In this document: one piece after another, positions 749 to 4,157 of the stretch
Numbering within the stretch: the stretch's first letter is position 1
Layout of the letters: each line of letters opens with the position of its first letter
IMG/VR virus record: IMGVR_UViG_2681813205_000010
Length of the DNA: 4,157 nt
Source: a virus
Taxonomy: Duplodnaviria > Heunggongvirae > Uroviricota > Caudoviricetes
Direction: 5' to 3' (one strand)
The notes under the pieces: generated by a model
Databases searched by the model: none
What the model saw: the letters and a program-made list of their open reading frames with translations, nothing else
What the model was told of the DNA's origin: nothing
Position numbers and translations under genes: made by a program

Positions 749-870
749 GCTTATTTTTCGTCAGATTATTTTTCAAAAAATTCCCGTGCATAAAAATTTG
801 GGGAGGCGTTCGGTGCCCGGCGGGGTCGGGTTTGTCCTGAAACCGCCCCCCCCCCCGCCATACAGCCTCA
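749..870. other. Intergenic region, candidate cos / packaging-initiation site (GC-rich cosN-like segment plus AT-rich cosB-like segment)
   Basis: The only sizeable non-coding gap in the operon, between the HNH/small ORF and terS. About 800..860 is very GC-rich (ggggaggcgttcggtgcccggcggggtcgggtttgtcctgaaaccgccccccccccccgcc) with dyad elements: GGCGGGG at 819..825 against CCCCGCC at 853..859, and GGTTT/AAACC around 829..844. The terS-proximal 749..800 is AT-rich with T and A runs. An HNH-cos-terS-terL arrangement is known from HK97-like cos phages. The function is inferred from position and composition only. Confidence 0.3.
846..856. repeat. Homopolymer tract, C11 on the plus strand (G11 on the coding strand)
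   Basis: Counted directly: bases 846..856 are eleven consecutive C residues, flanked by g845 and g857, inside the intergenic candidate cos region. Confidence 0.9.
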
Positions 871-1044
871 TCAGCGATTGCGGAAACATTCCATAACCTC
901 GCGGTCACGGTCGGTTAATCGCTTCGCTGTGATGCGTTCTGCGCGTCCTGACGCTTTATCTTTATGCCCTGTTTCCTGTGTCTTCCATGCGTCACGCTGC
1001 CTTATAAGTCCACGGATAAGGCGGTTTTGTTCCCGCTCATTCAT
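871..1044 (-). CDS. Hypothetical small basic protein, 57 aa
   Basis: The distal part of the listed 871..1275 minus ORF begins at an internal ATG (1042..1044) placed 5 nt before the HNH stop, so the two genes overlap by 8 nt (ATGAATGA). It encodes MNEREQNRLIRGLIRQRDAWKTQETGHKDKASGRAERITAKRLTDRDREVMECFRNR, which is highly charged and R/K-rich. The part of that ORF upstream of 1044 overlaps HNH out of frame and looks non-coding. No recognisable family. Confidence 0.4.
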   Translation of the reverse strand: MNEREQNRLIRGLIRQRDAWKTQETGHKDKASGRAERITAKRLTDRDREVMECFRNR

Positions 1045-1477
1045 CAGCGTCATACATCCAGTTATTGCGGTTAGCGGCCCGTTCTTCATCTTCACGAAAT
1101 CCACCTGCGGCACGCTTGCTTTTTGTTGCCGGATCAAGCCATTTCGTTTTCTGGTTATGACACGCCTGACACAATGGCTGATGGTTCCATTCGGGCCAGA
1201 AGAGAACATCATCGCCGCCATCGATGGGGATAATGTGATCCACCACCACGGCGGGCGTATATATCCCCTTCTCAAGGCATCGCACGCATAACGGGTTTTT
1301 ACTCAGATACATGGCGCGGTATTTGTCCCACTGTCTGGAGTACCCACGCGCGCGGCGGTGTCCTCGTCTGGCATCCTCTGCACGCCATGCCGCCCGCCTG
1401 TGCTCCTCACACTTACCGGACTTAACGCGCCTGTTACAGCCTGGTTCTGTACATCGTCTTAATGGTTGCCACGGCAT
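1037..1477 (-). CDS. HNH endonuclease, phage terminase-associated type
   Basis: 146-aa ORF with N-terminal Cys-rich segment (RRCTEPGCNRRVKSGKCEEH) and an HNH motif: DHIIPIDGGDD...WNHQPLCQACHNQKT (His, Asn, His plus a CxxC-His zinc-finger-like end). Located next to terS/terL, as in HK97-like packaging modules. Its start ATG (1475..1477) overlaps the connector stop (TGATG). Confidence 0.85.
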   Translation of the reverse strand: MPWQPLRRCTEPGCNRRVKSGKCEEHRRAAWRAEDARRGHRRARGYSRQWDKYRAMYLSKNPLCVRCLEKGIYTPAVVVDHIIPIDGGDDVLFWPEWNHQPLCQACHNQKTKWLDPATKSKRAAGGFREDEERAANRNNWMYDADE

Positions 1478-1770: not shown

Positions 1771-2105
1771 TTTTCCGCGCCCTCACGACAAAGAATTTCA
1801 AGGCGTGTCCTGGCGGCATCTGGCAGCGGTTGCCCGATGATATTCAGTACACGCCCCGCCAGCGGCCCCGTATTGACCTTTATCCGACTGGTGGCGTTGA
1901 TGTCCTTCCGGTAGCGTATCCATATCCTTACAGTTCCAGTCGCCAGCTCTGCACCTGATGAAATGGCCTCCTTGCTGCTGATCATGTTCACGCTTGCCCA
2001 GAGTGTGTGACCGTCCAGCCACGTTTCGAGTATTTCACCCGTCATGGCTCTGGTCTGTTTCAGGGTCTGAATCGTTACCCTGTCACGCAGTCGCCCTATG
2101 TTCAT
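1767..2105 (-). CDS. Head closure / head-tail joining protein (SPP1 gp16-like)
   Basis: 112 aa from the internal ATG at 2103..2105: MNIGRLRDRVTIQTLKQTRAMTGEILETW...GTVRIWIRYRKDINATSRIKVNTGPLAGRVLNIIGQP. The N-terminal xxGRLRxRVTIQ and the central RIRYR-type motif are typical of this family. The listed ORF extends to 2147, but that extension overlaps the portal 3' end out of frame; ATG 2105 overlaps the portal stop (ATGA) and has GAGGGAG upstream. Confidence 0.75.
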   Translation of the reverse strand: MNIGRLRDRVTIQTLKQTRAMTGEILETWLDGHTLWASVNMISSKEAISSGAELATGTVRIWIRYRKDINATSRIKVNTGPLAGRVLNIIGQPLPDAARTRLEILCREGAEK

Positions 2106-3313
2106 TCCGGTTTTTCTCCCTCGCTGATTTTTACTTCCTGTTTCCATGCCTGGCTGAACTCATCACCACCATCACGCGGTGACAGTCCTTCACGTTCGCG
2201 GGCTTCGTTCGGACACATAACGCCGGATTTGATGCCGCGCTCATAGGTGGCAAAGCGTTCGCCAGGTGTGGCCCGTAACAGGTCCGCGCTGTCAAACTCC
2301 ACCTGATACCGGATACCAGGTACAGGCGAGGCCACCAGCAGGGCGTTTTTTATCTGCTGCTCAAAGTTCGCCAGCCACGGGCGCATCGTCATGGTGAGAA
2401 ATGCGCGGCTTGCCTCGCTGAAATTGCTGTAGGTGCTGTTGCTGTATTCCTGCAAAAAAATCGGCGAGACGTTGAACATTCTGGCGATGTCTTCAATGGT
2501 GAAGCGACGGGAGGCCAGCCATTCAGCATCCTGATTACTCATGCCCAGCTGCTGATAGCTCATACCCCCTTCAAGGATGGGCGTTTTTCCGGCGTTTCTG
2601 GCCCCTTTGTAGCGTTCCAGTGCGGCTAATGCCTGTTTGCCCTTCACGCCGTCCAGCCATTCGCCTGACGTGATAACCCCTGCCGCCATCATGCCATCAC
2701 GCATCACGCTCGCGCCGTGGCGTTGTTGGGCCAGCCCAAGCCCCAGCGATTCGCGGCAGATGGTTACAGGTGAGCGCCCCATAAAACCGTCATCCGTGGA
2801 GTAACGAAGGTGGAGAACCTCCCACGGTAAATAGTTGCGGGTGTTTCCGGTGTAAGCGTCAGTGATGCAGTAGCGCCAGTTGTGTTCTCCTGTCTGCTCC
2901 ATGTTCACCGACTGCGGCGGGTAAGGATGCAAAGCCGCCGGAAAACCATCACGCCCCCACTGAATCACCGCGTAAGCATTACCGTTTAACAGGCAGTGGC
3001 GGATCATCATTCGCTTAAACTGGTAGGGAGTCTGCCACGCGTTCGGGCGCTCGTTGAGGATGTGATCGACCGGATGAGAATCAAGCCACTCGCGGGCCTC
3101 CTTCCCCTTCTCATTGCGTACCAGGTACAGGTAACACGGCATGGTAGCCACCGCCTCAGAGATGACCGTCACGGCGTTCATGACGGCGGGCAGTGATTCC
3201 GCTGTCCCCGATGATACGTACTCACCCGCCCCCGTGTTCGATGTGCCAGCCAGCGCCATAAACTCATCAAGCGTCATGCTGCGCTGCTCTTTTTTTCTTC
3301 TGAAAGGCCACAT
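2102..3313 (-). CDS. Portal protein, HK97 family
   Basis: 403-aa ORF of the size and composition expected for HK97-type portal proteins, placed between the prohead protease and head-completion genes. A GGGGGTG Shine-Dalgarno-like element lies about 7 nt upstream of ATG 3311..3313. Family assignment is by recognition of the overall sequence, not a search. Confidence 0.85.
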   Translation of the reverse strand: MWPFRRKKEQRSMTLDEFMALAGTSNTGAGEYVSSGTAESLPAVMNAVTVISEAVATMPCYLYLVRNEKGKEAREWLDSHPVDHILNERPNAWQTPYQFKRMMIRHCLLNGNAYAVIQWGRDGFPAALHPYPPQSVNMEQTGEHNWRYCITDAYTGNTRNYLPWEVLHLRYSTDDGFMGRSPVTICRESLGLGLAQQRHGASVMRDGMMAAGVITSGEWLDGVKGKQALAALERYKGARNAGKTPILEGGMSYQQLGMSNQDAEWLASRRFTIEDIARMFNVSPIFLQEYSNSTYSNFSEASRAFLTMTMRPWLANFEQQIKNALLVASPVPGIRYQVEFDSADLLRATPGERFATYERGIKSGVMCPNEAREREGLSPRDGGDEFSQAWKQEVKISEGEKPE

Positions 3314-3314
3314 A

Positions 3315-3887
3315 TCACACCCCCGCTAAATCCGCCCACCAGCGGCGATTATCCGCACGCGGCATTTTTTCGGGGTGCTGCTCGTACAGGGAGCGGCGGG
3401 CCAGCTCCACGCCGGAATCAGGGTAAGCCGGTACGGATGTGACGGTAATTTCGTACAGTTCCGCAACCAGCACGGTGCGCACGCATGGATCTGTTGTGGT
3501 ATCCCATACATCCTTACGGGAACGAAAGCCAAAGCTCATGCCGGATATATCACCACGCTTAACCAGTTCGATAACGTCGCGCCCTGTACTGGTATCCGGT
3601 GGGGTCAGTTCAAAGCGTAACCCTGTTTCATCCTCTTCCAGTTTCAGCGTGCCGGAACGGGTGCGCCCCAGTAACATACTGTGGTCATGCTCATACAGGC
3701 CGCGAACGTCATTACCCGCCGCAAGCCATTCAGTAAACGCCCCCCGCTGGAATTTTTCGTAAAACTCACCCCATAACAGTTCTGAAAGCTTATCCCAGCG
3801 AACAACGTAGCCTGTAAGCGTGTTGCTGCCGCTGGTGGTGATTTCCGATGACCGGATTTCCATACTCTTCATAATTTTTTCACCCAT
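3315..3887 (-). CDS. Prohead maturation protease, HK97 family (peptidase S78)
   Basis: 190-aa ORF with a characteristic prohead protease core: GAFTEWLAAGNDVRGLYEHDHSMLLGRTRSGTLKLEEDETGLRFEL...RGDISGMSFGFRS, which includes candidate catalytic His and Ser contexts. The start is ambiguous between ATG 3887, 3872 and 3863 (MGEKIMKSMEIR); none has a strong Shine-Dalgarno. The stop is 1 nt before the portal start. Confidence 0.85.
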   Translation of the reverse strand: MGEKIMKSMEIRSSEITTSGSNTLTGYVVRWDKLSELLWGEFYEKFQRGAFTEWLAAGNDVRGLYEHDHSMLLGRTRSGTLKLEEDETGLRFELTPPDTSTGRDVIELVKRGDISGMSFGFRSRKDVWDTTTDPCVRTVLVAELYEITVTSVPAYPDSGVELARRSLYEQHPEKMPRADNRRWWADLAGV

Positions 3888-3926: not shown

Positions 3927-4157
3927 TTAATCGTCGTCCTGTGGCAGTTCCAGAATCTTGATCGCGTTCGAATCCACCACGCCACCGCCTAAATATTTCT
4001 GCGTGAAAATTTTGAGGAAGCGCGGCTCTGTGAGCATGTCCGGTCTGGTGCGAACACCTGTTTGGTGAGCAACAATACAGTAACCGCGTTTGCAGTCACC
4101 CAGGGCAATATGGTTAACCGGCATAAACGCCAGATATTTGACCGTGAGGCCCAGCAA
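3927..4157 (-). CDS. C-terminal fragment of an upstream gene (5' end outside the window); possibly the major capsid protein
   Basis: Open frame running off the right edge and ending at TAA 3927..3929 (…GYCIVAHQTGVRTRPDMLTEPRFLKIFTQKYLGGGVVDSNAIKILELPQDDD). The leading M in the ORF track is a window-edge artefact, since the first codon is TTG. It is followed by a terminator-like hairpin, as is common after highly expressed capsid genes. Capsid identity is inferred from position only; I do not recognise the sequence. Confidence 0.45.
   Translation of the reverse strand: MLGLTVKYLAFMPVNHIALGDCKRGYCIVAHQTGVRTRPDMLTEPRFLKIFTQKYLGGGVVDSNAIKILELPQDDD

Follow-up and report, generated by a model that had tools for sequence, protein, structure and literature searches.

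A small basic protein encoded between the HNH endonuclease gene and the cos region of capsid-forming PICIs as a candidate packaging cofactor

Can a reading frame of only 57 codons, lying between an HNH endonuclease gene and a cos-type region, be a gene, and what would its product contribute to packaging? The question is posed by a small open reading frame (ORF) that a preliminary description of this DNA, made from the letters alone, had regarded as an unannotatable gene of a satellite and as a candidate for a small DNA-binding or packaging-specificity factor. Capsid-forming PICIs (cf-PICIs) are recently described, widespread phage satellites, which make capsids of their own and steal nothing but tails. 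In the published criteria for finding them, the packaging module consists of eight named genes; the small ORF, which would be the ninth, is omitted, although its mutant transfers very poorly.

The satellite setting of the window

The stretch of DNA analyzed here, 4,157 nucleotides long and called the window in what follows, carries all of its long ORFs on the minus strand. In the direction of the genes, Pfam matches identify a capsid C-terminus (3927-4157), an HK97-type prohead protease (3315-3887), a portal (2102-3313), a head completion protein (1767-2147), a gp6-like connector (1477-1770) and the HNH endonuclease of the packaging module (1037-1477; 146 aa; PF01844, E 1.2e-8), which also matches phrog_144 (E 1.1e-44). 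The small ORF (871-1044) follows as the last gene before the cos-type region (749-870). Beyond that region lie terS, encoding a 118-aa small terminase subunit of the P27 family (392-748; PF05119, E 1.3e-23), and the 5' part of terL (1-408), which overlaps the end of terS, is truncated at the edge of the window and is named after the annotation of a 99.8% identical locus.

Of 5,426 complete genomes of E. coli, 533 contain a match to the portion of the window from 700 to 1500. The best genome match, which is the 99.8% identical locus just mentioned, lies within an island of ~15.3 kb inserted in tqsA, where an integrase, an alpA-like HTH regulator and a replication module are present and both tail genes and lysis genes are absent. 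Such an architecture is that of cf-PICIs (bioRxiv 10.1101/2022.09.08.507074). With the Pfam matches of the window genes and an island in the size range of 10-18 kb that holds integrase, alpA and replication module, the window is the packaging module of an E. coli cf-PICI. The satellite context claimed in the preliminary description is borne out by this gene content, by the island of the nearly identical locus and by the island of strain EDL933 considered below.

Coding capacity and family of the small ORF

The small ORF runs from 1044 to 871 on the minus strand, where it had been placed before, and encodes 57 amino acids followed by a stop (MNEREQNRLIRGLIRQRDAWKTQETGHKDKASGRAERITAKRLTDRDREVMECFRNR*). 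Its ATG (1044-1042) is situated inside ATGAATGA (1037-1044), an overlap of 8 nt with the HNH gene, whose stop codon occupies 1039-1037; its own stop codon (873-871) stands 12 nt before a G-run (848-859). RefSeq chooses an upstream in-frame start instead, the ATG at 1053-1051, which adds the residues MTL (1045-1053) and yields a 60-aa hypothetical protein, WP_000174068.1. This upstream start shows no conservation beyond the E. coli lineage. The 57-aa start is favored over it because the 8-nt ATGnnTGA overlap with the HNH stop is kept in 93 of 98 loci and because the phrog_3173 profile begins at the Met of this start.

Translational coupling to the HNH gene, as proposed in the preliminary description, is consistent with this conserved overlap. 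An SD-like sequence precedes the small ORF in 57 of the 98 loci, and no SD-like 4-mer was found there in the window lineage. Since that lineage is without a Shine-Dalgarno sequence, translation most likely proceeds by termination and restart at the HNH stop: ribosomes would end there and restart at the overlapping ATG, so that the output of the small protein would be tied to that of HNH. On the gene strand, no promoter or terminator was found between the small ORF and terS.

Whether the frame is translated at all was assessed in two samples, namely 19 loci from one-genome-per-species contigs, found by HNH homology (61-99% identity), and 80 IMG/VR loci. A homologous ORF of 46-58 aa occupies the same slot in 15 of the 17 informative genome loci, which come from more than 12 genera of Enterobacterales, including Klebsiella, Enterobacter, Kosakonia, Pantoea, Erwinia, Pectobacterium, Rahnella, Rosenbergiella, Phytobacter, Intestinirhabdus, Kluyvera and Shigella, and the ORF is intact in 72 of the 80 IMG/VR loci; the order HNH-ORF-cos-terS is kept as well. 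Compared with the window, the relatives show pS of 0.57-0.84, so that synonymous sites are saturated, and pN of 0.30-0.45. The most conserved residues, including those of the C-terminal motif, are encoded by varied synonymous codons. Wherever lengths differ, whether among E. coli copies or from one genus to another, the difference comes from an in-frame indel in the central part of the ORF. Because the frame is conserved across genera while synonymous change is saturated and indels stay in frame, the small ORF is, on this comparative evidence, a real protein-coding gene under purifying selection as a protein.

The opposing reading, that of a chance open frame or of a shadow cast by the cos DNA element or by an antisense gene, can point to the shortness of the ORF, to the missing Shine-Dalgarno sequence in the window lineage, to the eight disrupted copies among the 80 IMG/VR loci, and to an antisense frame that is also open in the window (878-1291, plus strand; TTG-initiated, 137 aa), which spans the small ORF and part of HNH. 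The entropy of codon position 3 is 1.18 bits, as against 0.75 and 0.74 for positions 1 and 2, but the antisense ORF shares its third-codon positions with the small ORF, and codon periodicity cannot separate the two. The antisense ORF is interrupted by stops in 5 of 15 relatives and was rejected as spurious, and the remaining four frames across the small ORF are full of stops. A shadow of either kind would lack the combination of protein-level conservation, synonymous turnover and in-frame indels described above. Together with a full-length match to phrog_3173 and the published, trans-complementable mutant phenotype of an identical protein, both taken up below, this leaves the non-coding reading effectively refuted.

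Several copies depart from the intact form. A recurrent deletion removes almost the whole small ORF in loci L019 (Citrobacter amalonaticus, 2937-3119), L099 and L105; its remnant, MSEQEH-MSQRER, reads into the G-run, while HNH, cos and terS are kept, and in L105 it continues in frame into terS. Truncated or frameshifted small ORFs are found in L027, L046, L069 and L100. In L015 (Kosakonia cowanii, 2937-3263) and in the protein P0068, the stop is lost (TGA to TGT), and read-through across the cos region gives copies of 80-108 aa. In a further protein, EIH26749.1 of E. coli 1.2264 (201 aa), deposited as "HNH endonuclease domain protein", a frameshift has fused HNH residues ~1-118 to the small ORF; the junction runs through the upstream reading frame of the small ORF, the native HNH tail is absent, and the fusion is probably a sequencing or assembly artefact.

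The 57-aa protein, of ~7 kDa, contains 16 K+R and 10 D+E, is 46% charged and has a pI of 10.7; the pI lies between 10 and 12 in all family members. AlphaFold2, run with an alignment of 38 sequences, places helices at residues 3-39 and 45-55, with pLDDT above 90 for residues 1-20, a poorly defined middle, a mean pLDDT of 73 and a pTM of 0.37. The earlier characterization as strongly charged and predicted helical agrees with these values. The tiny hydrophobic core and the non-compact model suggest that the protein may fold on a partner or as an oligomer.

Reciprocal homologues of the small protein were found, and they share a common plan. The conserved N-terminus, M-x-E-(K/Q/R)-(D/E), leads into an amphipathic helix, L-(I/Y)-x-x-L-x-R-x-R-(D/E)-x-(F/W); a basic linker of variable length separates it from the C-terminal helix, which bears the motif (S/T)-x-R-(D/E)-R-(E/D)-(V/L/I)-x-(E/D)-(C/A)-(F/M)-R-N-R, usually with the stop codon next to it. 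The window protein carries the RDRE-x3-(F/M)RNR motif and the amphipathic N-terminal helix, and its gene is in the slot after HNH and before cos and terS. In PHROGs v4, all 57 of its residues align with the 57-position profile of phrog_3173, a family of unknown function (E 7.5e-37). When 1.84 billion cluster representatives were searched exhaustively with a profile, 25 matches came back, ~20 of them real (47-61 aa). As far as sampled, the family is narrow and confined to cf-PICI modules of Enterobacterales, and the members of phrog_3173 are probably cf-PICIs that were deposited as phages.

One such deposit is LR881103.1, "Escherichia phage vB_KppS-Ant" (16,548 bp), whose gene content is that of a cf-PICI. 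The last 37 nt of this linear record follow the small ORF and its first 22 nt precede terS, and ~66 nt of the cos region is missing from the record in comparison with a near-identical chromosomal copy in K. pneumoniae ATCC 13883; a 2.3-kb gene after its terL is labelled tape measure protein.

Beyond phrog_3173, searches for relatives were negative. There was no match in Pfam or NCBIfam for 38 members, even at E<=10, nor in the PDB, either by sequence profile or by Foldseek with the AlphaFold2 model. The preliminary statement that the ORF is unannotatable and belongs to no known family holds with respect to Pfam, NCBIfam and the PDB, but not with respect to PHROGs or to RefSeq, where it stands as a hypothetical protein. 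A match to CHIP (E 0.19) was rejected as a coincidence of 13 residues in a charged helix. A split-off N-terminal TerS domain was likewise rejected: hhalign against HK97 gp1 gave a probability of 0.5%, and Pfam returned no match to the TerS families (Terminase_4 / HK97 gp1). No HTH DNA-binding domain of the LuxR/GerE, sigma-70 region 4 or Xis-like type was found by profile or fold; the segment LT-x-RDRE-V may resemble the first LuxR helix, and the protein ends right after it.

The small ORF and gene 1792 of EcCIEDL933

The 60-aa RefSeq call of the window is identical to the WP_000174068.1 protein of the satellite EcCIEDL933, and over the stretch that was aligned their coding DNA is identical as well. 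The island of EDL933 (NZ_CP008957.1) occupies the plus strand between roxA and phoQ; tqsA was considered as its site and rejected, as it is intact in this strain. RefSeq lists there, all on the plus strand, capsid, protease, portal, head closure and connector under the tags RS08700, RS08705, RS08710, RS08715 and RS08720, followed by HNH and WP_000174068.1, whose replacement tags fill the 08725 and 08730 slots, and then by terS (RS08735) and terL (RS08740). The island of the window is a different cf-PICI from EcCIEDL933: the packaging module of the tqsA island, the closest genome copy of the window, is ~98% identical to that of EcCIEDL933, whereas integrases, integration sites and replication modules differ, with a RepA-family helicase in the former and a DUF927 primase in the latter.

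The capsid of EcCIEDL933 is the product of gene 1786 (2025 preprint). Counting forward from it makes HNH gene 1791 and the small ORF, six genes on, gene 1792, which in the literature is a "hypothetical gene". We regard this identity as very probable, the mapping being by RefSeq gene order and numbering and not by locus tag. A literature search for EDL933_1786-1796 found no paper, and the names of the cluster members are without the tag.

Point mutants have been made in every gene of the EcCIEDL933 packaging module, and replication was normal in all of them; transfer of the gene 1792 mutant was severely reduced and complementation in trans restored the titres, while helper phage titres were unchanged in all packaging-module mutants (Alqurainy et al., bioRxiv 10.1101/2022.09.08.507074). 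The published product is therefore trans-acting and strongly stimulates transfer, without being absolutely essential, and through the mapping by gene order this phenotype supports the role in packaging or transfer that had been proposed for the small ORF. Both the gene and its transfer phenotype are already known, the window protein being identical to the published one and encoded in the same slot between HNH and cos/terS. The gene itself is not a new discovery; what is newly defined here is a conserved and, to all appearances, translationally coupled family with a sharp C-terminal motif.

The helper data bear on one possible mechanism, an interference in which the small protein, like Ppi of SaPIs or Rpp of PICIs, binds the TerS or HNH of the helper and biases packaging toward the satellite. 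The preliminary description had drawn an analogy with other satellites, and a small satellite-encoded protein in a packaging module invites it. On the other hand, EcCIEDL933 leaves the titres of HK106 and HK446 unreduced, helper transfer is the same in all packaging-module mutants, and redirection is not needed in a satellite that has its own complete terminase-HNH set. Interference with the helper is, in our judgement, very improbable.

A reduction in transfer, as published, could stem alike from a fault in cos cleavage, in capsid assembly, in head completion or in the expression of terS and terL, and this counts against the cofactor explanation favored below. The small protein might serve another step, as a chaperone or stabiliser of the procapsid or portal, in head completion, or as a post-transcriptional regulator of terS and terL across cos. 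Small helical proteins often serve as assembly chaperones; transfer and packaged DNA are all that the published assay records, and the gene is co-transcribed with the structural genes, no promoter or terminator standing before terS. Against this reading, the gene 1786 product is the sole capsid component reported from EcCIEDL933 capsids by mass spectrometry and cryo-EM, the conserved slot of the gene is with HNH, cos and terS, away from the capsid and connector genes, and the distances of the small protein correlate worst with those of the connector (r 0.35). We consider a role in such another step improbable, though decidedly less so than interference with the helper.

Candidate role at cos and comparison with known systems

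The cos-type region of 122 nt upstream of terS (749-870) is a conserved intergenic stretch in which the two arms of a G-rich inverted repeat (819-830 / 848-859) flank GTCCTGAAAC, with a T-run nearer terS; the joined cos ends of HK97 have the same general layout, that is, a G-run, ~90-100 nt to the terS ATG, and a T-run nearer the ATG. Across loci, this conserved region measures 116-130 nt, its core elements are more than 90% conserved, and the small ORF ends 12-25 nt from the G-rich element. The small ORF does, as had been noted for the window, end just before a candidate cos region, with the conserved intergenic sequence and then terS following its stop.

The G-rich element of the window deviates at 842-858 (minus strand GGCGGGGGGGGGGGCGGTTTCAGGAC) by two T-to-G changes from the closest genome, JB2. 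Read on the minus strand, GGGGTGGGGGG has become a run of twelve G, at a position more than 90% conserved across loci, and CGTTTTC has become CGGTTTC. The version of the window is absent from all 106 fetched loci and may be either a genuine variant or an error in the sequence.

The proximity to cos raises the possibility that the small protein is itself a cos-specificity factor, which would bind the satellite cos directly, in the manner of IHF or a cosB accessory protein, so that terminase and HNH cut the cos of the satellite and not that of the helper. The high pI throughout the family, the short distance of the gene from the conserved G-rich element, the restriction of the family to islands that share this cos type, and the reported mutual exclusivity of satellite and helper packaging are all compatible with such a factor. 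However, the divergence of cos DNA tracks TerS and TerL (r 0.81 and 0.88) and follows the small protein weakly (r 0.63, rho 0.35). The small protein is, moreover, the fastest-evolving part of the module, with a mean pairwise distance of 0.44 as against 0.12-0.27 for the other parts, next to core cos elements that hardly vary; no DNA-binding fold was recognized in it, and the mutant is leaky rather than null. The specificity role suggested in the preliminary description is weakly disfavored by the covariation with TerS and TerL, and we deem it unlikely.

Which partner the protein might have was approached by a mirror-tree comparison of pairwise distances among the module components. The distances of the small protein correlate best with those of HNH (r 0.65), a correlation that may merely reflect physical adjacency. 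Two hints, namely the fast evolution of the small protein with its best correlation to HNH, and the closer tracking of cos DNA with TerS and TerL, both confounded by adjacency, weakly favor a protein partner over direct reading of cos.

On balance, we favor the explanation that the small ORF is a real, coupled cf-PICI gene, namely gene 1792, and that its product assists the HNH-TerS-TerL machine for cos packaging as an accessory subunit or cofactor, an account to which we give somewhat better than even chances. As an accessory component of this machine, the small protein would raise the efficiency of cos cleavage or of packaging initiation into satellite capsids, and it would probably act through a protein partner, for which HNH is the foremost candidate, and not by recognizing the cos sequence directly. 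Several observations weigh against this explanation: the link to gene 1792 rests on gene counting, no homology to characterized proteins was found in Pfam, NCBIfam, the PDB or by Foldseek, and natural deletions, truncations and frameshifts exist, so that either the gene is dispensable in some lineages or those islands are decaying.

Among known systems, Rpp of E. coli PICIs and Ppi of SaPIs resemble the small protein in being small satellite-encoded proteins that affect packaging. They differ from it in that they act on the TerS of the helper and block the helper, whereas in cf-PICIs the helper is unaffected and the satellite brings its own TerS, TerL and HNH. An analogy may be offered by phage lambda, in which gpFI and, at cosB, host IHF are non-essential stimulators of terminase-dependent packaging that are not terminase subunits, and whose loss causes a leaky defect. 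As an accessory cofactor, the small protein would work like them, by analogy and with no homology.

A positional parallel is found in the HK97-like helpers (HK97, HK022, HK106, HK446 and others), where a 67-aa ORF follows the HNH gene gp74 in the same slot, overlaps its 3' end and is the last ORF before cos and terS. In HK97 (AF069529; 895-1098 of the extracted locus, 39394-39594 of the record) this ORF begins MKDLIIEYRDGKF...; it is conserved in 40 phage records, including those of the cf-PICI helpers HK106 and HK446, and is unannotated in the records of HK97 and HK022. Judged by inspection alone, it has no sequence similarity to the window protein, and tblastn of the window protein against phages returned only two cf-PICI-like records. 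HK97-type helpers carry a different small ORF at the same place. A speculative extension, which we hold with little confidence, is that the small protein is a previously unrecognized fourth component of HNH-dependent cos terminases, a fast-evolving adaptor that would join HNH to TerS and TerL at cos, whose matching to its cognate partners only would aid the exclusivity of satellite and helper packaging, and of which the HK97-like 67-aa ORF would encode the functional counterpart. Taken together, the small-protein family and the ORF in the same slot of HK97-type phages provide a concrete candidate for the accessory factor that is missing from the picture of HNH-dependent cos cleavage.
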